Shown: positions 15,309 to 64,000, numbered from the stretch's first letter. The stretch is DNA of 64,000 nt from Pseudomonadota bacterium (GCA_049321355.1 JBMOPZ010000040.1:59410-123409); one strand, 5' to 3'. The notes: generated from the sequence alone by a model not told the origin. Program-made: numbers and translations.

Positions 15309-16673
15309 TTAATGTGCTCCCTGCTCGGCAGCCTCACTCTTTTTAGAGTGCAAACTGCGGTGATAGACCATTTCTTTGACCTCATACATGGATACCGATG
15401 GAAACACCTTGCAGAACACCATAAACAACAAGGTAAACCAACCAAAACTACCAAATACCATGCCCCACTGAATCAAGCTCGGCCATTGATCGTGATCCCA
15501 TGTCCACGGATAGTAGCCATCCGCAAATGTCGGCGACACAATCATCCAGCGCTCCAACCACATACCCAAGTTCAATAACAAGGACACGATAAACAACACT
15601 GGAATGTTGGTTTGATAACGCTTGAAGGCCAACACCAGCGGCACAACAGAGCCGCAGAAAATCATTCCCCACCAGGCGAAAGCGTAAGTTCCCGTCGCTT
15701 TCTCAAGAAGGACGTGCTTTGCCGCCTCATCATGCCCGTACCACACCGAAGCGAACTCCACCGCATTCAGATACGTCCACACCATCGCAATCGCGAAAGT
15801 CAGACGCACCGTCTTTTTCAAAATCGGCAATGTCATGTATTCCTCAAAGCGGAACACGTAACGCAGGATGATGAACAGCGTGATAATCGCCGCACAACCC
15901 GAATACAGCGCACCCGCCACGAAGTACGGCGGGAAAGAAGTCACGTGCCAGCCCGGCTGTTGCGACATCGCAAAGTCGGAAGCCACGATGGAGTGTACCG
16001 ACACCGCCAATGGAATCAGGAAACACGCAACGGTAAGATACGTCACGCGGAAGTTGCGCCATTGGCGATCCGTTCCTTCCCAACCCAGTGCCAACAGGGT
16101 GTACAACTTTTTGCGCCAACCGTCCTTCATATTGTCGCGACAGATAGCCAAGTCCGGGATCATCCCGACATACAGGAAGATAATGGAAGAACTCAGGTAA
16201 GTGAAAATCGCCATCGCATCCCACAACAACGGGGATTGGAAGTTCGGCCAGATGCCGCGCTCGTTCGGGTACGGCAAGGAGTAATAGAATTGCCACAACC
16301 GACCGATGTGCACCATCACAAACAGTCCCGCCGTCATTAACGAGAAAGTGGTCATCGCCTCGGCAAAACGGTAAATCGGCTTACGCCAATCGGCATGCAT
16401 CAAGTGCAAAATCGCCGATAGCAACGTACCCGAGTGACTCATGCCAATCCAGAAAATGAAGGTGGCAATATACAGCCCCCACACATGCGGGTTGTTCAAG
16501 TTAGCCACACCCATACCGACGTTATATTGGTAAATTTCACACCCCAAACCCACCGAAAAAACGGCCAGTGCCGCGAACACAATGACCCAATATAGTTTCC
16601 TCGGATTTTCCAAGCTCTTGAGCACATCCTGATTGATCTTTGCCCAGGCTATATCTTCGCGAATATCTTTCAT
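15309..16673 (-). CDS. actC: ACIII quinol-binding NrfD-family subunit C
   Basis: WGLYIATFIFWIGMSHSGTLLSAIL, HIGRLW, PNFQSPLLWD, IPLAVSVHSIV motifs. Confidence 0.9.
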   Translation of the reverse strand: MKDIREDIAWAKINQDVLKSLENPRKLYWVIVFAALAVFSVGLGCEIYQYNVGMGVANLNNPHVWGLYIATFIFWIGMSHSGTLLSAILHLMHADWRKPIYRFAEAMTTFSLMTAGLFVMVHIGRLWQFYYSLPYPNERGIWPNFQSPLLWDAMAIFTYLSSSIIFLYVGMIPDLAICRDNMKDGWRKKLYTLLALGWEGTDRQWRNFRVTYLTVACFLIPLAVSVHSIVASDFAMSQQPGWHVTSFPPYFVAGALYSGCAAIITLFIILRYVFRFEEYMTLPILKKTVRLTFAIAMVWTYLNAVEFASVWYGHDEAAKHVLLEKATGTYAFAWWGMIFCGSVVPLVLAFKRYQTNIPVLFIVSLLLNLGMWLERWMIVSPTFADGYYPWTWDHDQWPSLIQWGMVFGSFGWFTLLFMVFCKVFPSVSMYEVKEMVYHRSLHSKKSEAAEQGAH

Positions 16674-16710
16674 GCTGATTCCTTCAAGGAGTTCCAGTTA
16701 TCTGACCGAA

Positions 16711-17565
16711 TTAAACCGCGCTCTCGCGCACACGTTCCAAGTACATCACCGACGGGTAGGGGCGTAACTCTTCCAGGATACGGTAGCCGCGCAACTCACT
16801 ACGCTCTTCACCTTTATCCTTGGTTTGCTTATCTTTATCCAGCTCGACCTGCTGCGCCTGCCACTGCTTGTGCACCTTGGACTCGACATCGACCAAGTTA
16901 CCAAAAGAAATCGCCCCCGTCGGACAAGATTGCTGACACGCTGTCTGCACCTCCCCCTCGCGCACGATGCGTCCTTCGCTCTTGGCATTGCTCTTGGCCT
17001 CATGCAGACGCTGCACACAGAACGTGCATTTCTCCATGACACCCTTGCTGCGCACCGACACATCAGGATTCAATTGCTGCGTCATCTCCGCAGGCCAGAC
17101 CGCGTCATCGGTCGGGTAGTCATACCAGTTGAAATAACGCACTTTGAACGGGCAGTTAGCCGAGCAATAACGGGAACCGATGCAACGATTGTAAATCTGC
17201 GAGTTCAAACCGTCTGAAGTGTGGTTGGTTGCCGCCACCGGACACACCGTCTCGCAAGGCGCGGCCTCGCATTGTTGGCACATCATGGGCAAGAATTGCA
17301 CGCCCTGATCGGGGAATTCGCGACCATCCTCATCCCAATAACGCTCAATGCGCATCCAGTGCATTACCTGCCCATGCTGGAATTTTTCCCTACCCACCAC
17401 GGGCAAGTTGTTTTCGGCATAACAGGCAATGCTGCACGCATTGCAGCCGGTACACGCATCCAAATCAATGCTCATCGCCCATTTGTATGGATCGTGCGGC
17501 TTGTCATCCACAGGGTGAAAATGACGGAACTCAGCCCAGTTTTCTAATAGGTTACCTACTGACAT
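16711..17565 (-). CDS. actB2: ACIII Fe-S subunit (ActB2, NrfC-like)
   Basis: CTGCNACSIAC, CQQCEAAPCETVCP, CIGSRYCSANCP, CTFC..CQQSCP cluster motifs. Confidence 0.88.
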   Translation of the reverse strand: MSVGNLLENWAEFRHFHPVDDKPHDPYKWAMSIDLDACTGCNACSIACYAENNLPVVGREKFQHGQVMHWMRIERYWDEDGREFPDQGVQFLPMMCQQCEAAPCETVCPVAATNHTSDGLNSQIYNRCIGSRYCSANCPFKVRYFNWYDYPTDDAVWPAEMTQQLNPDVSVRSKGVMEKCTFCVQRLHEAKSNAKSEGRIVREGEVQTACQQSCPTGAISFGNLVDVESKVHKQWQAQQVELDKDKQTKDKGEERSELRGYRILEELRPYPSVMYLERVRESAV

Positions 17566-17568
17566 ACT

Positions 17569-19764
17569 TTAGACCTCCTCCGAAAGATCGACTTCATCCG
17601 TGGATACGCGCACCGCAATTTTCTTACCCATTTGCTTGCCGCCTACCGCACCCTCATCCTTAACCACAATGACACGTTTCCCTGTTTTGCTGATCTGAAC
17701 GCGAGTCTCATGGGTCGCCAATTCACCTGTCTCCCGGTCATAAACCGTCTCCAGGATTTGCAGGGGATTAACGCCATAGCCCTTGGCATAACGCCCCATC
17801 GCCTCATGCCCACGCCCCACGGGAATCGACACCGCTTCCGGGTGTATTCCGGGGAATAGGTAGGCCTGCGCCTCGACCGAGCCATGCTTGGAGGAAACCT
17901 TCAAGATGTCGCCCTCAACAATCCCCAACTCGGCAGCACGCTTGGGATGAATCTCCACCCATGAATCCCAGACAATAGTCGTCAACGGATCGGGCGACTC
18001 TTGCAACCACGGCTGATTGGTATGGCGACCATCGCGCAGACTGGCACTGATGCCGGGAATCAAACGGAACATCGTTGCATCTTCGGAGGACTCCGGCAAA
18101 TGCAAATTGGCCGCGCCCATCTTGTCACCCAGCGGACTGACCGCGCCCCCCAGCTTGACGAAGCCACGCATCAAAGTTTCGTTCCAGAAAGTCTCGTCAT
18201 CACTATTCGCCCCGCCCAATGCCGCTTTATTTTGCGCGAACGCATTGCGCAGATAGGCGTAATAGTCTTCAAATGCACCGTATTCTTCGGCACGATTCTG
18301 CTTGAGCAAGGCCAGCAAAACATCGCCCATGCCACGCGTATTCGCGTGCAATTTTTCCATCAAGGGTTGCTGAACATTGATCTGCGCATCAGCAGGCAGG
18401 TATTCAGGAATCTGCGTACCCCAATCTTCCAAAGCGGAGTCCAGCGGCAACACCAAATCGGCCTGCAAAGCCGTCTCATCAAGGTAATGCGCGAATGCCA
18501 CCTTAAAGTCAGCCTTGGCGAAATTCTCCTTGAATTTGGTTGCTGCCGGCGCGGTAAATACCGGATTCACACCATAACTAAACAACACCTTGTAACGCCC
18601 TGCCGCCAAATCATTATTCAAGGACTTCAGTGCCGCCGTGCCGCCTTTGGCCGGAGCCAATTGCGGGAATGGCACGGCACTTGGAGCTTCAATCGTTTTA
18701 CCGACGTTGCCCAACACATGATTCAACAGGTAAATTGCTGCCGCATTTTGCGAACCATGTGCATACCCCTCGGCGGCACTACCCGCCAGCACCAAGCTGG
18801 GCGAGCGCAGTTTCAGCAACGCGGCAATCTTGTCAATCTGCCCGACCGGCACACCGGTCTCTTTGCTGACACGCTCACGGTCATACTCTTTGACCATTTC
18901 GGCGATTTCACCCGTTGCCATACCCAAGGCATGAATAATCCCCAACGCCAAGACACCCTCGGTGCCGGGACGTACCGCGACCCAACGATCCGCGTTCGCG
19001 CCCGTCAATGTCATCTTGGATTCAACTTGAATCAGCACACCGCGCTGCCCGTCAACACCCTTACGGAATTGCCCATACTGCTGCGAAAAATGCACCGGAG
19101 AAACCCAACTGCCCAAGAAGTCCGCACCGAAAGACAACACCACCTTGGCCTTGTCGATACTGAAACGGGGCATTTCCACCCCGTAAGCCCTCATATTCGC
19201 GGCTCTCACCACGGCAGGCGCGACCGCTTCATACACAAAGTGATTTTTGCACCCGAGACTATCCAGATAATTGCCCAACAACACCCTGAGGTGCCCGCTC
19301 ACCCCGCCGCTCAAGAAAGCCACTTGATCGCCACTCACGCCCTTAAGCTTCTCAGCAATCAGCGCATAAGCTTTTTCCCAGGTAATGGCTTCGCCTTGGC
19401 TACCCTTGCGCAGCAATGGCTCACGCACCCGATCCGGATTGTAGTGATGCTGCACACCCGCCTGACCCAGGCCGCACAATTTTCCACGATTGATTGCGGA
19501 ATCAGGATTACCTTCCAACTTCAATACGCGACCCTCGCGCACTCGCCCGCTGATACTGCAACCCGCATCGCATTGCGCGCATGTCGAGTTGTAATACACA
19601 CCAATCCCGGGAATCACATAATCGGCAGCCTCCACGTATGAGACCACTGTTTCCTTGCCATCCTCAATCGAAGTGTTGCCGCAGCCAGTCAGCGCAACCG
19701 CCGCCCCACCCCAGCCCAACACCTTCAGAAAATCACGCCGATCAAAACCGTTGTCTATCATCAC
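17569..19764 (-). CDS. actB1: ACIII molybdopterin-oxidoreductase-like subunit (ActB1)
   Basis: Tat motif DRRDFLK, lipobox-like LTGC, CAQCDAGC..C motif, MopB-like N and C domains. Confidence 0.85.
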   Translation of the reverse strand: MMIDNGFDRRDFLKVLGWGGAAVALTGCGNTSIEDGKETVVSYVEAADYVIPGIGVYYNSTCAQCDAGCSISGRVREGRVLKLEGNPDSAINRGKLCGLGQAGVQHHYNPDRVREPLLRKGSQGEAITWEKAYALIAEKLKGVSGDQVAFLSGGVSGHLRVLLGNYLDSLGCKNHFVYEAVAPAVVRAANMRAYGVEMPRFSIDKAKVVLSFGADFLGSWVSPVHFSQQYGQFRKGVDGQRGVLIQVESKMTLTGANADRWVAVRPGTEGVLALGIIHALGMATGEIAEMVKEYDRERVSKETGVPVGQIDKIAALLKLRSPSLVLAGSAAEGYAHGSQNAAAIYLLNHVLGNVGKTIEAPSAVPFPQLAPAKGGTAALKSLNNDLAAGRYKVLFSYGVNPVFTAPAATKFKENFAKADFKVAFAHYLDETALQADLVLPLDSALEDWGTQIPEYLPADAQINVQQPLMEKLHANTRGMGDVLLALLKQNRAEEYGAFEDYYAYLRNAFAQNKAALGGANSDDETFWNETLMRGFVKLGGAVSPLGDKMGAANLHLPESSEDATMFRLIPGISASLRDGRHTNQPWLQESPDPLTTIVWDSWVEIHPKRAAELGIVEGDILKVSSKHGSVEAQAYLFPGIHPEAVSIPVGRGHEAMGRYAKGYGVNPLQILETVYDRETGELATHETRVQISKTGKRVIVVKDEGAVGGKQMGKKIAVRVSTDEVDLSEEV

Positions 19765-37514: not shown

Positions 37515-39164
37515 ATGTATTTCATCAAACCCACCGACCCGTACCCCATCACCCCCGGCAAAGCGCTGATACTTGCCCTGCTGTGCTTGGTCTGGCTGGT
37601 CACGGGTTTGATCGGACATGACCCGTGGAAACCCGACGAGGCATACAGCTTCGGCTTAATCTACTCCATCCTGCAAAACGGTCATTGGTTGGCTCCCACA
37701 CTGGCGGGTGAACCGTATATGAACAACCCGCCGCTGTTCTATTGGACCGCCGCGCTATTCGCCAAACTGCTCTCCCCCTGGTTGGCGCTACACGATGGCG
37801 CGCGTCTCGCCAGCGGTTTCTACACCGCACTCGCCCTACTGTTCATCGGCCTGAGCGGACGCAAACTGTACGGTGAAAATCGCGGCTGGGCGGCAGCCGT
37901 CATCCTCATCGGTTGCATCGGTATGCTGATGCGCGCGCACCAGATGATTACCGACCTGGCACTCTTGGCGGGCTGCGCCATGATGCTGTACGGCTACACA
38001 CTCAGCCAGGAACGCACGGTTCGCGCGGGCATTTGGATGGGCATCGGAGTCGGCATCGGCTTCATGTCCAAAGGCTTTATCGCCCCGCTGTTATTTTTGT
38101 TCATGGCTGCCGCACTACCGCTGCTATCCAACAAGTGGCGGGTGCGCCGCTACTTCTACAGTCTGATTCTCGCTGCATTGTGCGCGTTGCCCTGGCTGAC
38201 AATCTGGCCATTGTTACTCTACCAACATGCGCCGCAATTATTTGCCGACTGGGTATGGACACACAATTTCGGCAACTGGCTAACTTACGCCGCCGGCGGC
38301 CCGGGCAAAGACTCTCTCTACTACCTGAAAAACCTGCCCTGGCTGGCTTGGCCCGCGCTGCCGCTGGCAGCCTGGGTGGTGTGGCAATCTCGCCGCCGCT
38401 TGGCACAACGTGACGATTTGCAGCTACCGCTGGTCAGCCTTTTCGTCATGTTGCTCACCCTCAGCCTGACTCCCAATATCAAAGAAGTCTTCGCCCTGCC
38501 GATGTTACTGCCGATTACATTGTTAGCCACGGCATCGCTCTCGACACTCAAACGTGGCGCGGCCAATGCGCTGGACTGGTTCGGCCTGATGACCTTCGCG
38601 CTATTTGCCATCCTGATGTGGTGGGGCTGGGCGGGCTTGCTGTTGGACAACCACGCCAAAATCACCCAATGGCTAAAAGACTATCAGCCGGGATTCGAAC
38701 CCGCGCTACAACTTAAACACTTCATCGTCGCCATCGTCGCCACCCTACTCTGGCTGATCGTGGTTTGGCGCGTGGGTCGCTCCATGCGCCGCGCCGTGGT
38801 CAACTGGGCGGCGGGCATGACACTCATCTGGATATTGGCAATGACCCTGTGGTTACCCTGGCTGGATAGCGGCAAAAGTTACCGCCACATGGTCGGGTCG
38901 TTGCAACAATCCCTGCCGCCCCATTACCGCTGCATCGGACGCGAAACCCTGGGCGACGGACAACGCGCCATGCTGCACTACTTCGGCGACCTCATCACCC
39001 GGTCCGACCCGCGACAACAATGCGATTTACGCCTGATACAGGGCGGCAAATTATCCGCCGACCTGCCCGATGCACGGCACTGGAAGAAAATCTGGGAAGG
39101 CAGCCGCAAAGGCGACAAAGACGAGCACTATCGGCTGTATCAAAGAATCGATCAACATGACTAA
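37515..39164 (+). CDS. ArnT/PMT-family (GT-C) glycosyltransferase
   Basis: DPWKPDEAY, PPLFYW, SKG; many TM helices. Confidence 0.8.
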   Translation: MYFIKPTDPYPITPGKALILALLCLVWLVTGLIGHDPWKPDEAYSFGLIYSILQNGHWLAPTLAGEPYMNNPPLFYWTAALFAKLLSPWLALHDGARLASGFYTALALLFIGLSGRKLYGENRGWAAAVILIGCIGMLMRAHQMITDLALLAGCAMMLYGYTLSQERTVRAGIWMGIGVGIGFMSKGFIAPLLFLFMAAALPLLSNKWRVRRYFYSLILAALCALPWLTIWPLLLYQHAPQLFADWVWTHNFGNWLTYAAGGPGKDSLYYLKNLPWLAWPALPLAAWVVWQSRRRLAQRDDLQLPLVSLFVMLLTLSLTPNIKEVFALPMLLPITLLATASLSTLKRGAANALDWFGLMTFALFAILMWWGWAGLLLDNHAKITQWLKDYQPGFEPALQLKHFIVAIVATLLWLIVVWRVGRSMRRAVVNWAAGMTLIWILAMTLWLPWLDSGKSYRHMVGSLQQSLPPHYRCIGRETLGDGQRAMLHYFGDLITRSDPRQQCDLRLIQGGKLSADLPDARHWKKIWEGSRKGDKDEHYRLYQRIDQHD

Positions 39165-43557: not shown

Positions 43558-44066
43558 GCGACACCTCCGCGCGACACGCGGCGAAACAGCGGCTGCGCCT
43601 CGTCCGCCGAAGCTTGGTAAGTCACTGAAAAATCGCTCAACCCTTTCAGAACATCGTCGGGGTTTTTATCCGCGCGCGGCACAAAGGCATCAAAACCAAC
43701 GCGCTGCATGTAGAAAATCTGGTCGCGCAGCACATCGCCAATCGCGCGCAATTCGCCCTGATAACCAAAGCGGGTGCGCAAATGGTAGGCAATCGAATAA
43801 CCGCGCCCATCGGCGAATCTTGGAAAATCCACGGCAATCACGGCAAATTTATCCAGATCGGCTTGCAGGTCTTCGGCGCGCTGATCGCTCGCCAGCCACA
43901 CGCCCAGTTCGGCGCGCTGTTGCAACACGGCGCGTTGCGCCTGCCATACCGACAACGGCACGATGACCTTGCCGGCGGGAATCTCGACCTTGTCCGCCGT
44001 GTCGCTATCACACGGACGCAGCACACTCCAGTCATCGCTCACTACGGTTTTATTTTTGATAATCAC
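43554..44066 (-). CDS. DUF934 family protein
   Basis: FPRFADGRGYSIA..LR.RFGYQGELRAIGDVLRDQ; position after sulfite reductase. Confidence 0.9.
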   Translation of the reverse strand: MIIKNKTVVSDDWSVLRPCDSDTADKVEIPAGKVIVPLSVWQAQRAVLQQRAELGVWLASDQRAEDLQADLDKFAVIAVDFPRFADGRGYSIAYHLRTRFGYQGELRAIGDVLRDQIFYMQRVGFDAFVPRADKNPDDVLKGLSDFSVTYQASADEAQPLFRRVSRGGVA

Positions 44067-44067
44067 G

Positions 44068-45813
44068 TTAGAACCTCGGCGAATAATAGGGGGTGTCGTA
44101 AGACATGCCTTTTTTCAGCAAGTCATAGTCCGGTGTCAGCAAATTTTCATCCTCGGGCACGTCCGTCGCATACACAAACTCCTTGAAAGGCTCGTGTCCG
44201 ATGCGGCGCACGGTGTCGATGAAACGCTCGCCCTCATCGCGCTCACGCACATACACGTGCAGCAAGCGGCCAATCACTTCGGGGATTTGCGCGAACGAGA
44301 ACGCGCGCCCGATGACTTTGCCCAGACTGGCATCATTGCCCTGCGCGCCGCCTATCGACACCTGATTCCACTCGGTGCCGTCCTTGTCCACACCGAGAAT
44401 ACCGATGTGACCGACGTGATGATGCCCGCAGGCATTCATGCAGCCGGACATATTCAACTCAATCTCGCCGATGTCATGCTGAAAATCAATGCTGTCGAAA
44501 CGCTCCGCAATCGCCTTCGCCAGCGGAATGGATCGGGCGTTTGCCAGCGTGCAGAAATCTCCGCCCGGACAGCAAATAATATCCGTCAGCAGCCCGATGT
44601 TGGGCGTGGCAAAGCCTTGTGCTTTGGCGGATTCCCACAAGGCAATCAAGTCGGACTGCCGGACATCCGCCAGCACCAGATTCTGCATGTGGGTCACGCG
44701 CAGCTCGCCAAAACTGTATTGCTCCGCAAGTTGCGCCGCCGCGTCCATCTGTGCGGAAGTTGCATCGCCGGGCGCAATCCCGGTTTTTTTCAGCGACAGC
44801 ACCACCGCCGCATAACCGGGAACTTTGTGCGGCTTGACGTTGCGTTGCAGCCAATTGGCAAACGCCTTGTTATCGCGCTGCAAGGCTGCAACCGCCGCAT
44901 CGTGTTCCGGCAGTTGTTCGTAGGCGGGCGCGGTGAAGCACGCGGCGACACGCTGCAACTCGGCTTCCGTAACGGTGCAGGGGCCATCTTGGGTGAACTG
45001 CCAATCGGCCTCCACTTGACGCTTGAATTCCTTGATGCCGACGGCTTTCACCAATATCTTGATGCGTGCCTTGTACATATTGTCGCGGCGACCGTACTCG
45101 TTATAGACGCGCACGATGGACTCCAGATAACTGATGACGTGTTGCCAGGGCACAAAGTCGCAAATTTCCACGCCGATAATCGGTGTGCGCCCCAGCCCGC
45201 CGCCCACCAATACGCGGAACCCCACTTCACCGTGGGCATTTTTCACCGCTTGCAGCCCGATGTCATGCACCGCAATCGCGGCACGATCCGCCGCCGCACC
45301 GGTCATGGAAATTTTGAACTTGCGCGGCAGGTAGGCAAACTCGGGGTGGAAGGTGCTCCATTGCCGCAATATCTCGGCGTAAGGACGCGGATCAACCACC
45401 TCGTCACGCGCCACACCGGCGAATTCGTCACAGGTGATATTGCGGATGCAGTTGCCCGAAGTCTGATTGGCATGCATCTCCACGGTCGCAAGATCCGCGA
45501 GGATATCCGGCGCGTCCTGCAATTTGAGCCAGTTGAACTGGATGTTCTGGCGCGTGGTGAAATGGCCGTAATCGCGGTCATAGTTGCGCGCGATATGCGC
45601 GAACATGCGCATCTGCGCGGCACTCACCAAACCGTAAGGCACGGCAATGCGCAGCATATAGGCATGAATCTGCATGTACAGGCCGTTTTGCAGCCGCAAA
45701 ATACGAAACTCGTCTTCGCTCAACTCGCCCGACAAGCGGCGACGCACCTGGTCGCGGAACTGCGCGACGCGCTCGGCGGTGATTTGGTGATCGAATTGAT
45801 CGTAGCGATACAT
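44068..45813 (-). CDS. cysI: Sulfite reductase hemoprotein (nitrite/sulfite reductase family)
   Basis: HFTTRQNIQ, YLPRKFKI, ICCPGGDFC and SGCMNACGHHH siroheme/Fe-S ligands. Confidence 0.93.
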   Translation of the reverse strand: MYRYDQFDHQITAERVAQFRDQVRRRLSGELSEDEFRILRLQNGLYMQIHAYMLRIAVPYGLVSAAQMRMFAHIARNYDRDYGHFTTRQNIQFNWLKLQDAPDILADLATVEMHANQTSGNCIRNITCDEFAGVARDEVVDPRPYAEILRQWSTFHPEFAYLPRKFKISMTGAAADRAAIAVHDIGLQAVKNAHGEVGFRVLVGGGLGRTPIIGVEICDFVPWQHVISYLESIVRVYNEYGRRDNMYKARIKILVKAVGIKEFKRQVEADWQFTQDGPCTVTEAELQRVAACFTAPAYEQLPEHDAAVAALQRDNKAFANWLQRNVKPHKVPGYAAVVLSLKKTGIAPGDATSAQMDAAAQLAEQYSFGELRVTHMQNLVLADVRQSDLIALWESAKAQGFATPNIGLLTDIICCPGGDFCTLANARSIPLAKAIAERFDSIDFQHDIGEIELNMSGCMNACGHHHVGHIGILGVDKDGTEWNQVSIGGAQGNDASLGKVIGRAFSFAQIPEVIGRLLHVYVRERDEGERFIDTVRRIGHEPFKEFVYATDVPEDENLLTPDYDLLKKGMSYDTPYYSPRF

Positions 45814-46044
45814 TTAACTTTCCCCGTTCGGATATTGCCTGGACACCGGCAGCAACAACGCCGCCTCCAGCGGAAATTTCGCGCCATAGGCCAGTATGTG
45901 CGCGACATCGTCATCCTCGTCGTGGCGCAAAGCCATGCCGATATAGGCATGTTCGCCACTTTGGCCAACCACCACGCCGATACGCCCGCCGCAACCGTTA
46001 AACCAACTGACCTGCTTGGGTTTATTGGGCTTATTGGTACTCAT
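45814..46044 (-). CDS. Small hypothetical protein in the cys operon
   Basis: 76 aa; its TAA directly abuts the cysI ATG; RBS AAGGAAGAG upstream. Confidence 0.7.
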   Translation of the reverse strand: MSTNKPNKPKQVSWFNGCGGRIGVVVGQSGEHAYIGMALRHDEDDDVAHILAYGAKFPLEAALLLPVSRQYPNGES

Positions 46045-46054
46045 AACTCTTCCT

Positions 46055-46840
46055 TTATTTATAAAACAGCATCTTCAAGCCGATGATAAGCAGCATGATT
46101 GCCAATATCCTGCGCAACAGTTTTTCAGGCACTTTAACGCCCAAGTGGCTGCCGATATAAATGCCGGGCAATGAACCCAACAGCAAACTGCCCAGCAGCA
46201 CCAAATCCACCGTCCCCAACGCGAGATGTCCCATTCCCGCCACCGCAGTGAGCGGAACTGCATGCACGATGTCGGTACCAACCACCTTGACAGCGGGCAT
46301 ACGCGGGTACAAAAACAAAATAACCACCGTGCCCAGCACTCCCGCACCAATCGAAGAAACCGTCACCAGCGACCCGACCGCCGCGCCCGTTGCAATGGTT
46401 GCCGCAGGCAGATAACGGTGGTGCAACTGATAAATTGTCCCGTCCCTGCGCCGCGCCAATTTTTTGATGGCATCCTTGAACAGCAGCACCGTGGCGGTTG
46501 CCAGCAACGCCACGCTGAGCACGCTGGTCACCACACTGCGCAATGTCGCCTCTTCCAGTGCCAGAAATTTCAACAATGAAATCGTCACCACCGCCGCAGG
46601 CAAGCTGCCCATCGCCAGCAAACCGAACACTTTCCAATCGACTGTGCCGCGCCGACCGTGTACCCAGCCGCCCACCGTCTTGGTCAGCGAGGCATAAAGT
46701 AAATCCGTACCCACGGCTGTTGCCGGAGAAACACCGAAGAACAACACCAGCAGCGGTGTCATCAGCGAACCGCCACCGACACCTGTCACCCCGACGATTA
46801 AACCGACCAAAAATCCCGACAGGGTGTACAACCAGTCCAC
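46055..46840 (-). CDS. TauE/SafE (CysZ-like) anion permease
   Basis: GVTGVGGGSLMTPLL, AVGTDL, VVGTDIVHAVPL; GTG start at 46840 after AAGGAG. Confidence 0.88.
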   Translation of the reverse strand: MDWLYTLSGFLVGLIVGVTGVGGGSLMTPLLVLFFGVSPATAVGTDLLYASLTKTVGGWVHGRRGTVDWKVFGLLAMGSLPAAVVTISLLKFLALEEATLRSVVTSVLSVALLATATVLLFKDAIKKLARRRDGTIYQLHHRYLPAATIATGAAVGSLVTVSSIGAGVLGTVVILFLYPRMPAVKVVGTDIVHAVPLTAVAGMGHLALGTVDLVLLGSLLLGSLPGIYIGSHLGVKVPEKLLRRILAIMLLIIGLKMLFYK

Positions 46841-56118: not shown

Positions 56119-56165
56119 TCCCCAACCCTCTCCCGCCGGGAGAGGGTGCCGAAGGCGGGTGAGGG
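56119..56165. repeat. REP-like repeat (CCCTCTCCC/GGGAGAGGG family)
   Basis: CCCTCTCCCGCCGGGAGAGGGTGCCGAAGGCGGGTGAGGG; related to 57519-57606. Confidence 0.65.
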
Positions 56166-56688: not shown

Positions 56689-57231
56689 ATGAAAACCGCA
56701 CTGGTCTTATTCGCGCGGGGTAGCGAAGAATTGGAGGCTATCACCATAGTCAATATCCTGCGGCGCGGCGCGGTAAGTGTCACGCTTGCCGGGCTCGAAG
56801 CGGGTGTTTTACGCGGCAGCCGGAACACGCAAATCATGCCGGACACCACGCTAGAAGAGGCACTCGCTCACGATTACGACATGCTGGTACTGCCCGGCGG
56901 ACAACCCGGCACCCACAACTTCAAGGCGGACACGCGCGTCATTGATCTGATACAAAAAATGGCAGCCCGGGGCCGTTATGTGTGCGCAATTTGCGCCGCA
57001 CCCTCGGTGCTGGCCGCCGCCGGGTTGCTGGACGGCAAGCGCGCCACCGGCTATCCCGGCACGCTGGATGGCTACGCCGCCGTGCAACAGCAGGCAAGCG
57101 CGGTCGTGGAAGACGGTCGCATCATCACCTCTCGCGGTCCCGGCACGGCGATGGACTTCGCACTCACGCTATTGGAACGTCTGGCGGGATCGGCGAAACG
57201 GGCGGAAGTCGAGGCCGGGCTGGTACGCTAA
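56689..57231 (+). CDS. DJ-1/YajL/ThiJ-family protein
   Basis: GSEELEA, LVLPGG, AICAAP, TSRGPGTA. Confidence 0.92.
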   Translation: MKTALVLFARGSEELEAITIVNILRRGAVSVTLAGLEAGVLRGSRNTQIMPDTTLEEALAHDYDMLVLPGGQPGTHNFKADTRVIDLIQKMAARGRYVCAICAAPSVLAAAGLLDGKRATGYPGTLDGYAAVQQQASAVVEDGRIITSRGPGTAMDFALTLLERLAGSAKRAEVEAGLVR

Positions 57232-57341
57232 AGAAACGCGGAAGGACGGTCATGCCCCATAGTCGGGCATCCAGCTTGTTGAATTGACTGGGTTCCCGTC
57301 TGCGCGGGCGTGGCGGGAGCGGATTTGTTCAGTGCCGAATC

Positions 57342-57606
57342 GATAGCACAGCCCCCCCTTCTCCCGGAAAGACCTCGACATCGAATTCCGCGATGTTTGA
57401 TAGCACAGCCCCTCATCCCCACCCCTTCTCCCGGGAAATTGACGCGCGCCGAGTTTAGAGAGTTGATAGCACAGCCCCTCATCCCCACCCCTTCTCCCGG
57501 AGGGAGAAGGGAGTAAAGCCCCTCTCCCTGTGGGAGAGGGATTGGGCGGCAAAGCGTCCGCGAGAGTGAAGCCCCTCTCCCTTTGGGAGAGGGGTTGGGG
57601 TGAGGG
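57342..57606. repeat. REP-derived tandem array: 38-bp unit, unique 28-29-bp spacers, then inverted REP hairpins
   Basis: TTGATAGCACAGCCCCTCATCCCCACCCCTTCTCCCGG exact at 57397-57434 and 57463-57500; shortened copy at 57342-57367; CCCTCTCCC/GGGAGAGGG hairpins follow. Confidence 0.8.
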
Positions 57607-57700
57607 AAATCATGCCCCGGCTTACTTGGCCTTGTGTTACCTGCACCCAACTGCGGTTTTTAGCTTCAGCGTGCCTAACACGCCCTCAAAGAGTACGCCC

Positions 57701-60199
57701 TCATATTTCATACATTAAGTTTGATCCCGAAGATTCTGCCTGCTCATCTGCTGCCTGACGCTTAACAAGCGCGACAAACTCTTCCACAGGAAGCGGCATC
57801 CCGAACAAATAGCCCTGATACAACATACAGCCCGTCTGCGCCAGGAAATCCCGGTTCTGCCGGGTCTCGACACCCTCGGCAATCACCTCCATCCCCAGCG
57901 ATTTTGCCATCAACACAATGGTCTGAACGATGGCCGCATCGGTATGCGTTTCTTCCATATTGCGTACAAATGACTGGTCTATCTTCAGCTGATCCAGCGG
58001 CAACTTGGTCAGATAGGACAACGATGAGTAACCCGTACCAAAGTCATCCATGGAAAAGCGTATGCCGCCTTTTCTGAGCGCCTGCATCTTATCCACGGTA
58101 TCGGAGACATCGTCAAGCATGATACTTTCTGTCAATTCCAGCTTGAGGCGTAGCGGGTTCACTTCATATTGCAGCAACAACTCCTGAATATGCTCGACAA
58201 AATTCGCCTGACGGAACTGTAACGCACTGACATTGATGGCGAGATCAATGTGTTTCAACAGCGGATCGCGCGCCCATTCGTACAGTTGCTGCATGGCTGT
58301 TTCCAACACCCATTCACCTATCGGCAAAATCAAATTGGTCTCCTCCGCCAAGGGAATAAAGTCGCTTGGTAACACCATGCCGTCCTTACCATGCTGCCAA
58401 CGCAATAGAATTTCGGCGCCGATGATGCGCCCCTGCCGGTTGACCTGCTGCTGGTAATGCAATCTGAATTCTTTGCGCGCCAAGGCATTACGCAGGTCAA
58501 TTTCACGCTGCGCGCGCAACTCCAGTTCGTGTTGCATACCGGGATCGAAGAAACACAAACGATTACGCCCATTCTTCTTGGCGGCATACATCGCCATATC
58601 CGCCTGTTTGAGAAGATCATTGGGGTTCTGTTGCTGCCCGATAAAGGTGGTAATGCCGACGCTGGATGAGCCATGATGCGTATGTCCGTCAAGGTAATAC
58701 GGTTGGTTAGTCAATTCCAGCAACTTCTCCCCTACCGACCGCGCCTGCTGCACGGCGGTCTCATCCAGTTCGCTCAAGCCTTCCAGCAACACCACGAACT
58801 CATCACCGCCGAAACGTGCCACAGTATCGCATTCGCGCACACAGGACTGCAAACGCTTGGCGACCTCCATCAACAACATATCGCCCAACGCATGTCCCTT
58901 GGTATCATTCAGCGTCTTGAAATTATCCAGATCGAGAAACAACAAAGCACAGCGGTTTTCACTGATAGAGCCGCGCGCCACCGCCTGCTGCATCCGGTCA
59001 AACAGCAGGCGACGATTGGGAAGTTTGCTCAACTGGTCGTAAAAAGCCAGGTTATGGATTTCCCGCTCGGCGCGATTGCGTGCGGTCATATCAATAAAGG
59101 CAGCGAAGAAGTTGGTCACCCTACCGTCAGCACTCACAATCTTGCTGACGGTCAACAACTCCAGACGCGACTCACCGTTTTTGTGCTGCGTCCATAACTC
59201 CCCCTGCCAGTAATCATCCTGCTGGATGCTCCGCCACACGCCCCGATAAAAATCTTCATTCTGAATATCGGATTTGAGCATGGTCGGCCACTTGCCCATT
59301 ACCTCTTCCGCGCTATAACCGGTCAAATCGGTGAACGCCTGATTCACGCGCATCACCTTGCCACGCGCATCGGTCACCACCATCCCCTCATCCGACTCAA
59401 AGGCGACGGCCGCAATACGCAAGTCGGCATCGCGCGCCTCCAGCCCCGCCATCATCTGATTAAAGGCATCCGCCATTTCCACAATATCTTTAGGGCCGGA
59501 CGGTGCGATGCGCACCCCGGTTTGACCCGACTGCGCCAATCCCATCTTGGCCTCCAGACGCTGCAATGGCACCGTGATACGGTGCGTCAGGAACCTGATC
59601 AGCAACAAAAACAGCACGGCAAAAACGGCTGCCGTGGTCACATTACTGACAAAAATTTCCCGGCTGGTCGCCGCCAGAATCTCCTTGCTCAGCACCACCC
59701 TGACACTGCCGACCAGCTCGGGTTTACCCGCCTCAAGATTAAACGGTGAAGAACCGTCGTTGCTCGGCTTGGTATAAGCGGGGGCAACAAACATCCATGC
59801 GGCATTATTTTCCGCCGCCACCGCCATCTCCCCGAACGAGCCATTGGGTGATTGATTGAGAAAATCGCGATGTACCGAAGCAACATCCTGCAGCAACACC
59901 GTTTGGTCGAGATTGCGTACCTGCACCCCGACCACGCCCGGGAATGCCATGGTCGCCTTGGCCGCCACCTCGACATTCTCCGGTGACTGATACAGCAATG
60001 CCAACACACTTTGATGCGCCAAACTTTCTGTGATCCGCTCCCCCTGAGCCAATAAATCGGCACGCACACGCTGATTCACTTGCCAGGATGCCACCACGGA
60101 AATCGCCAGCGCCAGCAACACCACACCCAGGGTAATGGTCACGCTCAGCTCGCGCCGCAAGGTGAATTTACCGATCAATTTTGAAACAAACTGTCTCAT
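57701..60199 (-). CDS. Membrane HAMP-PAS-GGDEF-EAL c-di-GMP enzyme
   Basis: Two TMs around a periplasmic domain, HAMP, PAS, RECD I-site, RFGGDEF, EIL motif, DDFGTGYSS, EGVET. Confidence 0.93.
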   Translation of the reverse strand: MRQFVSKLIGKFTLRRELSVTITLGVVLLALAISVVASWQVNQRVRADLLAQGERITESLAHQSVLALLYQSPENVEVAAKATMAFPGVVGVQVRNLDQTVLLQDVASVHRDFLNQSPNGSFGEMAVAAENNAAWMFVAPAYTKPSNDGSSPFNLEAGKPELVGSVRVVLSKEILAATSREIFVSNVTTAAVFAVLFLLLIRFLTHRITVPLQRLEAKMGLAQSGQTGVRIAPSGPKDIVEMADAFNQMMAGLEARDADLRIAAVAFESDEGMVVTDARGKVMRVNQAFTDLTGYSAEEVMGKWPTMLKSDIQNEDFYRGVWRSIQQDDYWQGELWTQHKNGESRLELLTVSKIVSADGRVTNFFAAFIDMTARNRAEREIHNLAFYDQLSKLPNRRLLFDRMQQAVARGSISENRCALLFLDLDNFKTLNDTKGHALGDMLLMEVAKRLQSCVRECDTVARFGGDEFVVLLEGLSELDETAVQQARSVGEKLLELTNQPYYLDGHTHHGSSSVGITTFIGQQQNPNDLLKQADMAMYAAKKNGRNRLCFFDPGMQHELELRAQREIDLRNALARKEFRLHYQQQVNRQGRIIGAEILLRWQHGKDGMVLPSDFIPLAEETNLILPIGEWVLETAMQQLYEWARDPLLKHIDLAINVSALQFRQANFVEHIQELLLQYEVNPLRLKLELTESIMLDDVSDTVDKMQALRKGGIRFSMDDFGTGYSSLSYLTKLPLDQLKIDQSFVRNMEETHTDAAIVQTIVLMAKSLGMEVIAEGVETRQNRDFLAQTGCMLYQGYLFGMPLPVEEFVALVKRQAADEQAESSGSNLMYEI

Positions 60200-60212
60200 T
60201 GCTTACGCCTTG

Positions 60213-61200
60213 TCATTGCGCATAGGTGGTTGCAAAAACCACATTACTTGGCAATTCCAAACTGGCACGTTGCGCCGCACGTAAATTAACCGCGCCTTTC
60301 AGGTTACGCAACGGCATCATGCCGTTTTTGACACTTCGCGGTGATTTCAACAACTCCTTTGCCAGCCGCCCCAGGCTCTGCCCCATTGCTTGATTGTCCG
60401 GGTAGAACGAAAACAGGGCACCGCGCTTGACATGGGAAAAATTACTCGAAAAGACAACCACGCCTTTCTCCCATGACTCGCCGAGTACCATGGGAACAAC
60501 GGCACGCTCTTCCACCGTGGTGCTGTCCTGCGGCAACCACAGCGCATCACTACGCTGGTCGGCCTGTAAAAAGAACGCTCGGTAAAAACTCACCGCACTG
60601 CGCAAATCACGCGCCTCAAACGCATCCAACTGCAAACCGTAACGTTGCGCCGCCGCTTTTGCCAACTCAATCAGCCAGGCATTTTGCTCCGGGTTATATA
60701 CCACCACCACCCGCTTGGCGGCGGGCATCAGTGCCCGCAAACGCTCAAATAGTACGGACGGATCGGGCGCAAGGCTGAGCACCGGATGTTCGAGCATTTC
60801 ATATTCTTTCACCTCCAACACGCAACCCAGTATCAATGGCACACCACCCGCATCGACAATTTCCTCGGCACGCAAGCTCTGGTTACCCAGAAAAATTGCC
60901 ACTTTATCTCTGCTTGCACCCGCCTGCCGACTTCTCTCCAGCACAGCTGGCATCCGCGTCAAATCAGTATCATCCTGCAATGGGAATTTGGCAACCGCGC
61001 CGCCCATTTCCGCCTCGATGCCTTCAATCACCTGATCAAAAATTGCACTATAGGGCTGCTTGAGTTGCGGATAAATCACAGCGGCATCCGCCCAACTGAA
61101 AGCGGGAAATATCAACAGTGTCACCAAAAAACTGTGTAAAGCCCGGCGGCGCAAGCCGACGCAACGCGAAGCGTGGGTAGCGGCGAAACACTGAACCAGC
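60213..61200 (-). CDS. Periplasmic ABC-type substrate-binding-like protein (no transporter partner)
   Basis: Signal-like segment ending FSWA; VVVYNP, DALWLPQDST, KRGALFS motifs. Start uncertain because the ORF-track start lies inside a repeat. Confidence 0.7.
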
Positions 61201-61292
61201 CCGTTCGCCTCGAGCTTGCCGAAGGGCAAGCTTCGTGACGCGTTCATTGTGCATCGCCCGCTCATGGTTCGACAGGCTCACCACGAACGGAG
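61200..61292. repeat. Inverted REP-like doublet
   Basis: CCGTTCGCCTCGAGCTTGCCGAAGGG ... CTCATGGTTCGACAGGCTCACCACGAACGG; the second arm is a near-exact reverse complement of 50957-50986. Confidence 0.75.
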
Positions 61293-61414
61293 GGCTTATT
61301 CAGCAGCTCCCCAAGGGAATATCGCAATGCAGGCAAAGGACGTAACATTCTCATTGGCTATATCGGCATTGTTTATCGGTGCGGTGCAACAACATATCAA
61401 TACATCTGAAATCC

Positions 61415-61494
61415 GTAGGGTGGAAAAAGCGTAGCGTTTCCACCGATGAACAACGCTTGCCGGTGGATACGCGCTCGCGCTTTATCCACCCTAC
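61415..61494. repeat. Inverted REP doublet (GTAGGGTGGA..TCCACCCTAC)
   Basis: GTAGGGTGGAAAAAGCGTAGCGTTTCCACC ... GGTGGATACGCGCTCGCGCTTTATCCACCCTAC. Confidence 0.75.
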
Positions 61495-61525
61495 CTTTTT
61501 CTTAAAAGTTAACGGTGCCATGGCA

Positions 61526-63646
61526 TTAAAACCTGTGCCGCGTCTCGACTCGCCACTCCCGCCCGGCGAGCGGCAAGTCGTTCAAAATCGTCGCTCCCGG
61601 CACGAACGGCGACGGTTCGCGCGCATCGGCATTGAACAGATTGCGCACACTCACCGCAAACTCCCAATCTTGCGCCTCGCTTTCGTTGCGCAGTGTCACA
61701 TCCGTGGTGGTGAAATCGGCCACGTTGGCACGGGCATCACCCAGCACCCGCTTGCGCCCGCCCACATGGTTCAATTGACCGCTCACCGTCCAGCGCGGCA
61801 TAAACAACCAATCGCCGCGCGTGTACACCTGATAGTGCGGCGCGTTGCCGGCATCATGGTTGGTCGCGGTATCAATCGCGCGCTGCTGGGCAAAATTTCC
61901 GGTTACGCGCAAATTGGCCAGCGCATCCCACACCAGTTCCGCCTCGATGCCTTGACCGCGCTGTTGTCCGCTGTTTTGCGCGGTTGCACCGCCGCCAACT
62001 ATATTGGGCACAAAGCGCAAAATATCTTTCATGTTGTAGCGGAACACGTTGACACTGGTTCTCAGGGTGTTGCTCGGTCGCCAGGAAAATGCCGCTTCCC
62101 AAGTGTCAATCTCCTCCGGCTTCAAGTTGGGATTCCCCAACGCCACCGGATTATTGACGTTATACAACTCGGCAAAAGCGGGCGGTCGGAACGCCTGTCC
62201 ATACATCACTTTGGCGGTCATGTCATAGGACAAGTCCCACACCAGGGCGACGCGCGGATTGGTGGTGCCGCCAAAATCCGAATACTGATCGTGCCGCACC
62301 CCGGCAGTCAGATACCAGTCGCGTGCCAGATTCCACTCATCCTGGACGTAGGCGTAATGCACCTCGCGCTTGTGCGGTGTCAGGAATGGTGTGGTATTGG
62401 TCACATCGACCACCGACCCCAATGGGGAGGGCACAAAACTCGACGTGCCGCCTGGCGGTATCAGAAAAGGATGGATCGGTGCCCAGTTAAAATTCCTGCT
62501 TTCGCGCACACGATACAAATCATCCGTCTGCGTACCCGCGCCAAAGCGTAGCGAGTGATTCTTCAACCCCTTATAAAGCACCGAACCATTCAAGCGCAGA
62601 TGACGCTCCCATTTATCCGGGTTACCAATCACCCCGTTCGGGAAAGCCGGCACAGGCGGAAATACTGTCAAATCGAAAAATCCCGCCGGAAACAATGTCG
62701 CCCGCGTCTGTTCGATAATCTCCAGATAACTTGCCTGTGCGTTGACTTCCCAATCCCCGGCAAACTGCGGGTTGTTATAACTCAGATCGGCGGAAGTGCG
62801 TTCGCCAAAACTGGTTCCGGCGGGATCCAATGCCGATGCAATCCCCACGCCCGCCTGCCCTTTATCACGCTGTTGATACCCCAGACGCAAGTGCCAGTTC
62901 CCGGTAGCGGCATCAAAACGGGCATCCAGCGCGTCGCGCCCCAAATTTACCGCTCCCGGAGCGCGTGATGGCACACCCAGCGCACTGGCGGCATCGGCAT
63001 CAATGATGCGCTGCTGCCCTTGGGTCGTGCCAAAACGCGCGTATGCCGACACCGACACCCCGGCCAAACTACCCCCGTATTGCGCCCAGACATCACCGCT
63101 ATCAAACGATCCGCCACGCACACCGATTTCGCCGCCCTTGAGATCATCGGCGGTTTTGGTTACCAGATTGATGATGCCGGAAAAAGCGTCCGCACCGTAT
63201 AGTGCCGAACCCGGCCCGCGTATCACCTCGATGCGCTCGATATTCTCCAGCGGCATCCCCGCCCACACTTGCGAACGATTGCCAAAAAATATCCCGGTAA
63301 CCGGAATGCCGTTAATCAACATCAAGGCCTGCGGATTAAATGCGGTGTGAATGCCGCGTATGCTGTAAATGGGGTTATAGCCTATCGGCGAGCGCGACAC
63401 ATGCAGGCCGGGGATGGTTTCCAGCACCTCGTCCAGATCGGTCGCCCCCATCACCTTGATGTCGTGCGCGGTCACCACGCTGGACACCGACGGTGCACGG
63501 ATGACCGATTGCTTGCTGCCCGTCGCCAGCTCGACAAAGTCGATGTCGCCATAGGCCATCGCCAGCTCTTCTTCCTGCGTCAGTGCCGCCGCAGTGAGCG
63601 GCAATGCCGTGAGCAGTGCAATGATCGCTATTTTTTTCATCGCCAT
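61526..63646 (-). CDS. TonB-dependent outer-membrane receptor
   Basis: Signal peptide, plug motif IERIEVIRGPGSALYGADAFSGIINLVTK, amphipathic barrel strands, terminal RHRF. Confidence 0.92.
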   Translation of the reverse strand: MAMKKIAIIALLTALPLTAAALTQEEELAMAYGDIDFVELATGSKQSVIRAPSVSSVVTAHDIKVMGATDLDEVLETIPGLHVSRSPIGYNPIYSIRGIHTAFNPQALMLINGIPVTGIFFGNRSQVWAGMPLENIERIEVIRGPGSALYGADAFSGIINLVTKTADDLKGGEIGVRGGSFDSGDVWAQYGGSLAGVSVSAYARFGTTQGQQRIIDADAASALGVPSRAPGAVNLGRDALDARFDAATGNWHLRLGYQQRDKGQAGVGIASALDPAGTSFGERTSADLSYNNPQFAGDWEVNAQASYLEIIEQTRATLFPAGFFDLTVFPPVPAFPNGVIGNPDKWERHLRLNGSVLYKGLKNHSLRFGAGTQTDDLYRVRESRNFNWAPIHPFLIPPGGTSSFVPSPLGSVVDVTNTTPFLTPHKREVHYAYVQDEWNLARDWYLTAGVRHDQYSDFGGTTNPRVALVWDLSYDMTAKVMYGQAFRPPAFAELYNVNNPVALGNPNLKPEEIDTWEAAFSWRPSNTLRTSVNVFRYNMKDILRFVPNIVGGGATAQNSGQQRGQGIEAELVWDALANLRVTGNFAQQRAIDTATNHDAGNAPHYQVYTRGDWLFMPRWTVSGQLNHVGGRKRVLGDARANVADFTTTDVTLRNESEAQDWEFAVSVRNLFNADAREPSPFVPGATILNDLPLAGREWRVETRHRF

Positions 63647-63652
63647 CCCTCC

Positions 63653-64000
63653 TTATTCACGCCAGCGGCGGCGCGCCACGCCATGATACGCCAATCCCCG
63701 GCAGGGCAGCGGAAACACCGCCCCCGTTGGTTTGGCTGCCGCCTCGATATAACCCGGCGGCATCCCCGCCAAAAATACGGGTACCGCCACCAGATAGTAT
63801 TCACGCGGCGACATCTCCATGTCCGCACAAATTGCTGCGGTCAGCGCGACCACATTCATCTGCCAGCGCCAACGGCCATTTTTGAGTATCTCTTCCACCG
63901 CAAATGCCAGCTTAAGATAAGCACCGTTCTCCAAGCCCTGTTCACGCACGATTGCCATCAAGGGTGGGATACGCTCATCCGAGGCAACGATGGGTCGCCC
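63653..64000 (-). CDS. Citrate-synthase-fold-like protein, 3' part (truncated by window edge)
   Basis: Frame open to the edge: GRPIVASDERIPP..MNVVALTAAICADM..SPRE..LAGMPPGYIEA, resembling the C-terminal half of citrate synthase/citryl-CoA lyase folds with altered catalytic positions. Confidence 0.6.
   Translation of the reverse strand, partial: GRPIVASDERIPPLMAIVREQGLENGAYLKLAFAVEEILKNGRWRWQMNVVALTAAICADMEMSPREYYLVAVPVFLAGMPPGYIEAAAKPTGAVFPLPCRGLAYHGVARRRWRE

Follow-up and report, generated by a model that had tools for sequence, protein, structure and literature searches.

What joins a citrate-synthase-fold enzyme, a TonB-dependent receptor (TBDR), a binding protein and a cyclic diguanylate (c-di-GMP) sensor into one locus? 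The question is raised by positions 57701 to 64000 of a 64,000-nucleotide stretch of Pseudomonadota DNA (GCA_049321355.1 JBMOPZ010000040.1:59410-123409; 'the window', positions 1 to 64,000), which an original prediction had put forward as an undescribed small-molecule signaling operon. We find that the window's end cuts through a conserved signaling cluster of six genes, whose 3′ two-thirds make up this region. The cluster would admit a ligand through the TBDR, capture it on a binding protein of family PF04392 and thereby change c-di-GMP turnover, with cytoplasmic enzymes supplying the ligand. We regard this complete model as an even bet and its sensing core as probable.

A conserved block of six genes

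As predicted, all four open reading frames (ORFs) of the region are co-oriented, on the minus strand. In the direction of transcription, they are the 3′ end of a citrate-synthase-like (CSL) gene, CSL2 (63653–64000; the last 115 codons, with the gene running on past the window's end), the TBDR gene (61526–63646; 706 aa, plug and barrel), the binding-protein gene (60213–61265; a 350-codon ORF with a Pfam match to PF04392) and a sensor gene (57701–60199; 832 aa, a probably sCache_4-type domain, then HAMP-PAS-GGDEF-EAL by Pfam matches and motifs). CSL2 and TBDR genes are 6 bp apart (63647–63652), and the binding-protein and sensor genes 13 bp (60200–60212), as had been claimed; likewise, 57701–64000 contains no ATP-binding cassette (ABC) transporter gene and no extracytoplasmic-function (ECF) sigma or anti-sigma gene. 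The four genes are not uniformly tightly packed, because a spacer of at least 260 bp (260 to 370 bp) separates the TBDR and binding-protein genes and carries an inverted repeat with 24-nt arms that resembles a repetitive extragenic palindrome (REP; 61408–61501, without strand, from a repeat search and the sequence).

A syntenic relative, locus L001, served as a stand-in for the DNA past position 64000. Its full-length CSL2 is 81% identical to the window fragment and it has the same downstream genes: A 180-aa ORF (DJ-1/PfpI in L001) and YajQ-, argG-, argF- and argD-sized ORFs agree in length, order and relative strand. L001 and a second locus, L004, hold the six-gene block in unrelated flanks. 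In both, Pfam annotation gives the order thiamine pyrophosphate (TPP) enzyme (~570 to 600 aa), CSL1 (~270 aa), CSL2 (~270 to 285 aa), TBDR, PF04392 binding protein and HAMP-PAS-GGDEF-EAL sensor. The CSL1 and CSL2 genes overlap by 4 bp. L001 has no spacer like that of the window, as its TBDR and binding-protein genes overlap, and its binding-protein/sensor gap is 3 bp versus 13 bp in the window, both being translational-coupling distances, where read. Further biosynthetic genes had been expected beyond 64000. The orthologous loci supply the second citrate-synthase-like gene (CSL1) of that expectation, together with a TPP enzyme resembling acetolactate synthase (ALS); the adenylate-forming enzyme also proposed is not in the block.

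The arrangement recurs widely. A scan of GTDB with the binding protein, at one genome per species, returned 396 relatives. Co-occurrence was counted over 82 non-redundant loci, of which 77 or 44 had enough flanking DNA for a given count. In 76 of 77 loci, the gene right after that of the binding protein encodes a sensor with a homologous N-terminus. Within 8 kb, a TBDR lies upstream in all 44 loci, of which 38 have the TPP enzyme and 32 both CSL genes; the remaining form, a TBDR–binding protein–sensor triad without enzymes within that distance, accounts for 6 of 44. The genes are laid out either colinearly or divergently, with TBDR←CSL2←CSL1←TPP transcribed away from binding protein→sensor. 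Flanks differ between clades (purMN/hda, aroE/mtgA, grx/argH-lytS or trkAH), and the block therefore moves as a unit. Co-conservation across genomes, which had been suggested as a check, is thus strong, in different flanking contexts and in both layouts. The gene arrangement, which recurs in about 80 other genomes, is far beyond chance.

Nearly all of the best 80 of the 396 relatives are Gallionellaceae, Sideroxydans, Ferrigenium, Sulfuricella or Nitrosomonadales metagenome-assembled genomes (MAGs). They also include MAGs of Hydrogenophilales, Sulfuritalea, Aalborgicola and Methylococcaceae, as well as Sulfuricella sp. T08 (L036), which is a named strain rather than a MAG. Carriers thus belong mostly to chemolithoautotroph lineages, iron- and sulfur-oxidizing groundwater bacteria. 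An exhaustive search with the binding-protein profile gave 463 clusters at 50% identity (E ≤ 1e-30), word-indexed homologs numbered 844, and three more distant representatives keep the same arrangement. Unbiased clustering of all locus ORFs found no further family traveling with the block, bar a short-chain dehydrogenase/reductase (SDR) and clade-specific synteny (Grx, CitMHS, ArgH and LytS/LytTR). No sigma or anti-sigma family recurs across the 82 loci.

Some loci elaborate on this plan. Loci L068, L070, L078, L079, L029 and L031 carry an additional, divergent CSL1/CSL2 pair, with 28 to 38% identity to the usual one, and alongside it one to three further TBDR genes; L071 has a tandem TBDR–binding protein–TBDR–binding protein–sensor array. 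This diversification of the receptor/CSL module recalls the receptor multiplicity of siderophore systems. In a Methylococcaceae MAG (L080:28-12940), the triad lies within a signaling island with no TPP or CSL enzymes nearby; its neighbors are a REC protein, a Peripla_BP_4 binding protein paired with a 4HB hybrid kinase, and a MEDS-PAS hybrid kinase.

The binding protein and its membrane sensor

The binding protein matches PF04392 (ABC_sub_bind) in its C-lobe (E 3e-12). An internal TTG at 61154 yields MRRRALHSFLVTLLIFPAFSWA ahead of DA, that is, a classic signal peptide ending in SWA before DA, and translation probably starts at this codon inside the 350-codon ORF. In an AlphaFold2 (AF2) model of moderate confidence (pLDDT 70), the C-lobe is confident and the N-lobe is divergent and of lower confidence. 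The best matches of the model over both lobes are the PF04392 structures 3LFT (Trp-bound), 3LKV and CD0873, followed by class I periplasmic binding proteins (PBPs) including LsrB and LuxP; alignments with 3LFT, 3LKV, 6HNI and 6HNJ span ~310 columns (E 4e-13 to 1e-10). The modeled protein is accordingly a two-lobed PF04392 fold, a class I PBP. Ligands on record for PF04392 are L-Trp, L-Tyr and L-Phe, and the protein scores 32.8 bits against a cutoff of 390 on the NCBIfam TrpX equivalog. An xDxT loop conserved in the family falls opposite the IDNT segment when 3LKV and 3LFT are aligned with it. The invariant positions include several Arg, Trp and Tyr but no His or Cys, which weakly hints that the ligand may be an organic anion rather than a bare metal.

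The sensor consists of a first transmembrane segment, a periplasmic domain at ~40–186 (~150 aa), a second transmembrane segment, HAMP (203–254), PAS (269–373), GGDEF (385–547) and EAL (568–802). Its GGDEF, RxxD, EIL and DDFGTGYS motifs are intact, in agreement with the original prediction, and read RECD-TVARF-GGDEF (with the RxxD I-site), EIL and DDFGTGYS. Among full-length orthologs, 55 of 56 keep GGDEF, RxxD and DDFGTGYS, and the EAL motif reads EAL or EVL; EIL occurs in the window only. Because the catalytic motifs are kept, both activities, diguanylate cyclase and phosphodiesterase, are plausibly live. The periplasmic N-terminus was compared through orthologs taken from the loci, as a word-indexed homolog search gave only two matches. 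sCache_4 (PF09984) matches 57 of 64 orthologous N-termini (best E 1e-11), and the family profile matches the periplasmic domain of GacS (5O7J; E 0.003). The window N-terminus has no sCache_4 match of its own at E ≤ 10 and is 37 to 60% identical to the 63 others in alignment A4, most of which do match; by its sequence, it is probably a divergent member of the sCache_4 type.

What follows this input domain is variable. Orthologs continue into PAS-GGDEF-EAL, GGDEF-EAL, a histidine kinase (HK) or HK-REC-Hpt-REC-GGDEF-EAL, c-di-GMP turnover being the final step in most, so that the input module (binding protein and sCache_4-HAMP) stays constant while outputs change. Among the HK variants, L013 (1203–3344) and L048 (1835–3988) encode a REC-PAS-GGDEF-EAL regulator upstream of the TPP gene, and the enzymes are therefore bracketed by signaling genes; L050 has a REC-REC-GGDEF regulator downstream (4575–5912).

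In a mirror-tree comparison of distance matrices over 28 loci, the binding protein correlated with the Cache domain at r = 0.91 (partial correlation 0.87 controlling for GGDEF-EAL), with the TPP enzyme at r = 0.72 and with the GGDEF-EAL part of the same sensor at r = 0.55. The first of these values, itself correlative, fits either physical co-adaptation or the inheritance of binding protein and Cache-HAMP as one swappable module. Either way, binding protein and Cache domain would therefore make up a functional unit. A relay from binding protein to sensor is thus well supported, by adjacency in 76 of 77 loci, coupling distances, a constant input module, the correlation with the Cache domain and the lack of a nearby ABC transporter.

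This lack bears on a quite different reading, in which the locus serves nutrient or metal uptake and catabolism: TBDR and binding protein would supply an ABC transporter encoded far away, the substrate would be catabolized by the TPP and CSL enzymes and the GGDEF-EAL gene would be an unrelated neighbor. The idea has precedent, as PF04392 proteins of solved structure work with ABC transporters and have Trp, Tyr or Phe as their ligands (3LFT and CD0873), and TBDRs classically serve uptake. We nonetheless consider it improbable. No ABC ATPase candidate lay within 7 kb in the 82 loci when these were scanned for Walker A plus the ABC signature; only 4 of 948 ORFs had both, all at least 7 kb away, one of them Hda. 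An unrelated neighbor would hardly keep its junction with the binding protein while its output domains vary, nor share the evolutionary distances seen for the Cache domain, and the carriers are mostly chemolithoautotrophs. Furthermore, the best Fur boxes upstream of the TPP gene in 46 loci matched 9 to 12 of 19 positions, equal to shuffled sequence. Metal-chelate sensing, which had been offered as one function of the circuit, is therefore unsupported by Fur boxes, and the iron-chelate flavor of the ligand idea has no positive support here. Nor does any nonribosomal peptide synthetase (NRPS) or NRPS-independent siderophore (NIS) synthetase, exporter, or Peripla_BP_2, FecCD or ABC import family recur in the loci.

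Enzymes, receptor and the source of the ligand

The receptor has a signal peptide, a TonB-box-like segment, a plug (50–158) and a 22-strand-type barrel (237–670; both by Pfam). It falls below every specific NCBIfam cutoff, its Protein Data Bank matches are generic (best CirA), the window's own protein has no database record, and its orthologs, 46 to 72% identical, adjoin the binding-protein gene in related loci. As had been noted, it carries no N-terminal signaling extension: The plug begins at residue 50 and there is no STN match.

The complete receptor also speaks to whether any ligand is imported at all. A sensor of envelope state, of the YfiBNR type, would need no ligand; a binding-protein-like inhibitor would be sequestered by an outer-membrane protein under stress. 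YfiB, YfiR and YfiN are an outer-membrane protein, a periplasmic protein and an inner-membrane c-di-GMP enzyme, respectively, a three-tier topology that the cluster matches, and the divergent N-lobe of the binding protein, modeled at lower confidence, would suit such a role. However, the outer-membrane partner here is a TBDR with plug and TonB-box-like segment and not a lipoprotein, the binding protein still folds as a complete two-lobed PBP and has kept its xDxT loop, the counterpart of IDNT in the Trp- and Phe-bound PF04392 structures, and the co-conserved enzymes would be left unexplained. We think this reading very unlikely.

Of the enzymes, only the end of CSL2 lies in the window; the features of the TPP enzyme are taken from L001 and L004. 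This enzyme has the three domains TPP_enzyme_N/M/C and scores below every named ALS/acetohydroxyacid synthase (AHAS) model of NCBIfam (best 284 bits, cutoff 538). Its nearest solved relatives were deposited as BbmA and CsmA (8X3X and 8X3Z); literature searches on their chemistry gave nothing relevant, and we draw no conclusion from either. Five loci insert an SDR gene between TPP and CSL1 (L055:2255-3013, L058, L067, L033:5228-5974 and L023:5156-5902), which suggests an optional reduction step in the pathway. More distant SDR copies follow CSL2 in L078 and the kinase in L088. None of TPP, CSL1 and CSL2 has a signal peptide.

CSL1 is a homolog of CSL2 (97% probability in hhalign). Across the whole ~260-aa fold, their family profiles match the citryl-CoA lyase of H. 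thermophilus (6HXP; E 1.3e-16 for CSL1 and 1.9e-13 for CSL2). Their NCBIfam scores are far under the cutoffs; the window fragment of CSL2 matches citryl-CoA lyase (PRK06224) weakly (E 7e-6) and has no near-identical homolog among the matches listed (best 74%). The fold named by the original prediction, which citryl-CoA lyase shares with the C-terminal domain of ATP-citrate lyase, is therefore upheld by homology, but both proteins lack the His, His and Asp that serve catalysis in citrate synthase and in citryl-CoA lyase. At the AHGGA His, GYGH His and NVDG Asp positions, CSL1 reads A/S, PGHPPGFDP and LAMxG, and CSL2 reads Y, GYGRP and MNYxG. New invariant motifs have appeared: CxCHGYD and NPGPR in CSL1, and SYPDxRxWNN and GYGRP..DER in CSL2. 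The overlap of their genes predicts that the two proteins probably form a heteromer.

These parts suggest the following order of events. A specific small ligand would cross the outer membrane through the TBDR, energized by TonB, and be captured in the periplasm by the transporter-less binding protein, which would then dock on the sensor's Cache domain or alter its contact with it. Through HAMP and PAS, the balance of diguanylate cyclase and phosphodiesterase would shift and so set the level of c-di-GMP. The cytoplasmic enzymes, joined by the SDR in some genomes, would most likely make the ligand or its precursor, although we hold their supplying it with less than even confidence. If the ligand is self-made, the cluster would be a circuit of the ScrABC type, responding to its own signal, but with a gate in the outer membrane as well. 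Here, the contact between binding protein and sensor, import by the TBDR, the origin and chemistry of the ligand, and the phenotype controlled are inferred.

Alternatively, the triad may sense an exogenous ligand, such as a foreign metallophore or an organic acid of biological or geochemical origin, while TPP and CSL proteins act elsewhere or process or inactivate the compound. We consider this possible, if doubtful. Most loci have the enzymes, which accompany the triad from one flanking context or orientation to another; L013 and L048 place them between a response regulator and the receptor, and in the window the CSL2 gene stops 6 bp short of the TBDR gene. An outside source would nevertheless account for the enzyme-free triads, including those outside Nitrosomonadales (L080, L071 and L082), and for TBDRs that are duplicated and diversified like xenosiderophore receptors (L058, L079, L082 and L083).

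Further findings weigh against a self-made ligand or against the model as a whole. Loci of Methylococcaceae, Sulfuritalea and Aalborgicola, too, have no enzymes nearby, and together with the 6 of 44 triad-only loci these outliers imply that the ligand need not come from these enzymes. Without the canonical residues, catalysis by CSL1 and CSL2 is putative, and the core block holds no exporter for a self-made signal; both points also favor an exogenous ligand. The mirror-tree correlation between binding protein and TBDR is low (r = 0.39), which the choice of paralogs may partly explain. The REP-carrying spacer of the window could uncouple the TBDR from transcription of the binding-protein gene, and at least one HK variant (L091) has no c-di-GMP regulator in the DNA available. 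In groundwater metatranscriptomes (X8, X12 and X17), contigs extend over every gene and break at REP repeats only, yet depth is flat (~34 to 38 in X8) and like that of neighboring genes, and DNA carry-over is possible.

Taken further, the ALS-like TPP carboligase and a neofunctionalized citryl-CoA-lyase-like heteromer could provide iron- and sulfur-oxidizing Betaproteobacteria with a new autoinducer or a metallophore-like hydroxy- or keto-acid, which they would retrieve by the TBDR and read through the PF04392 protein on the sCache_4 GGDEF-EAL sensor. We offer this as a tentative proposal, and one that may well be wrong.

Several known systems resemble the circuit. The closest in function is ScrABC of Vibrio parahaemolyticus, not named in the original prediction. 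Its single gene cluster combines an enzyme for an extracellular signal, a periplasmic binding protein without a transporter and a GGDEF-EAL protein that is anchored in the membrane and has a Cache-like domain in the periplasm (PMC8050422). Here too, the gene of a transporter-less binding protein is immediately followed by one for a membrane GGDEF-EAL protein that senses with a periplasmic domain, but GGDEF-EAL is the sole homologous part. ScrA is like a pyridoxal phosphate (PLP) aminotransferase, whereas the cluster has an ALS-like TPP enzyme and two degenerate citryl-CoA-lyase-like proteins; ScrB belongs to SBP_bac_3 (class II) rather than PF04392 (class I); and the Scr sensor is dCache-like rather than sCache_4. 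Scr also lacks a TBDR, and its signal is made by its enzyme, whereas the enzymes here are only co-conserved (38 of 44 loci). The ScrABC binding protein switches the activity of the GGDEF-EAL protein (PMC8050422); Trimble and McCarter reportedly found in 2011 that the switch is from diguanylate cyclase to phosphodiesterase. Parts of the cluster other than GGDEF-EAL are non-homologous to those of Scr or Nsp; the cluster would work like ScrABC yet stands outside the ScrABC family.

The next precedent is NspS-MbaA of Vibrio cholerae, in which the gene of an orphan binding protein immediately precedes that of a transmembrane GGDEF-EAL protein and NspS relays an external small molecule without transporting it (PMC8050422). 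NspS differs in being an SBP_bac_8 protein that senses exogenous polyamines, with no linked enzyme or TBDR. LuxP-LuxQ, TorT-TorS and ChvE-VirA share the structural class of PBP (LuxP and LsrB are among the fold matches) and a membrane partner with a PAS/Cache-like periplasmic domain, and some loci here have HK outputs as well; they use another PBP family, have no TBDR and usually signal by phosphorelay instead of c-di-GMP. FecA-FecR-FecI and FpvA-FpvR-PvdS also place a TBDR in a signaling chain that reports an external chelate. Fec-type cell-surface signaling is nevertheless excluded here because there is neither an STN extension nor a sigma/anti-sigma pair, and the signal would instead pass through the periplasmic binding protein. 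In the polysaccharide utilization loci of Bacteroides, a SusC-type TBDR admits a ligand that is read by a PBP-fold module on a hybrid two-component sensor (e.g., BT1754). There, module and kinase form one fusion protein, the cell imports and eats the ligand, a nutrient glycan, and the output is transcription. These loci show that a TBDR can serve a PBP-fold sensor in the periplasm, with the difference that the PBP here is a separate protein.

A 2021 review of binding proteins in signaling lists NspS-MbaA and ScrB-ScrC as the only binding-protein-dependent c-di-GMP sensors (PMC8050422). That review contains no PF04392 example, and the word TonB is absent both from it and from a 2022 census of c-di-GMP inputs. 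We found no earlier description of the cluster in the literature searched, the coverage of which is incomplete, so this is absence of evidence only; the cluster is apparently undescribed. It would contribute PF04392 plus sCache_4 as a new input module, a gate in the outer membrane and a candidate new small-molecule pathway. Should the bolder proposal of a self-made autoinducer or metallophore hold, the cluster would be without precedent as a TonB-gated quorum or chelate signal that reaches c-di-GMP directly by way of a binding protein. It would then be a candidate for the switch that governs the formation of biofilms, stalks or mats in iron- and sulfur-oxidizing lithotrophs. To our knowledge, the control of mat and stalk formation and of attachment is poorly understood in Gallionellaceae, Sulfuricella and Sideroxydans. 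These organisms are hard to handle genetically, and a heterologously testable sensor would be useful; with Sulfuricella sp. T08 as a named-strain carrier, the hypothesis is directly testable.

Leader, repeats and neighboring sequence

In Gallionella-type loci, a conserved leader of ~120 nt precedes the TPP gene (L020:4206-4350, L024:5555-5699, L033:3193-3337 and 15 other loci; alignment A5). It carries a promoter-like CTGTGCTACAGT, a hairpin-like segment GGAGATGCAAAGTCTCC and a palindrome, GATCAGTGATC, that abuts the start codon. Several loci also have a short upstream ORF (MRFETGSVISQ*), whose stop codon overlaps the start codon of TPP as ATGA. A structured riboswitch was rejected because RNAalifold finds no conserved RNA structure in the leader, and an operator or a leader peptide is possible. 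Searches for sigma-54 promoters gave only a few weak matches. No Rfam riboswitch reached its gathering score in six loci, and in the window there were only chance-level matches on REP repeats. A promoter and terminator scan of the region found sites no more often than in shuffled sequence.

The window sequence is present in biofilm and groundwater metagenomes. REP-like palindromic repeats flank the binding protein–sensor pair (57337–57600, 56126–56146 and 61408–61501), and the repeat unit CCCTCTCCC-N3-GGGAGAGGG occurs four times in the window versus zero expected. The array at 57337–57600 (without strand; direct repeat families D1 to D4 and inverted repeat I2) lies directly 3′ of the sensor gene and probably marks the 3′ boundary of the unit; a 140-aa ORF that overlaps it (57228–57650) is probably spurious. 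Metagenome depth rises 5- to 40-fold at the REP-like repeats, being 5 to 15 times that of the flanks at 61408–61501 and showing a spike at 57337–57600; Logan contigs break at both of these sites. Odd joints in the read laying, 57609/61414 and 61445/57572, connect the two repeat sites. We rejected a deletion or circle of the binding protein–sensor pair and read the joints as assembly-graph links through multi-copy REP elements.

Elsewhere in the window, positions 15309–19764 encode a 731-aa molybdopterin oxidoreductase, QrcB/PhsA-like but under the cutoffs, followed by ORFs of 284 and 454 aa, the latter without an NCBIfam match at 1e-20. The set may be a redox complex linked to a sulfur compound or to quinones. 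ORFs at 43963–46086 (707 aa) and 37515–39164 (549 aa) likewise gave no NCBIfam match at E ≤ 1e-20.

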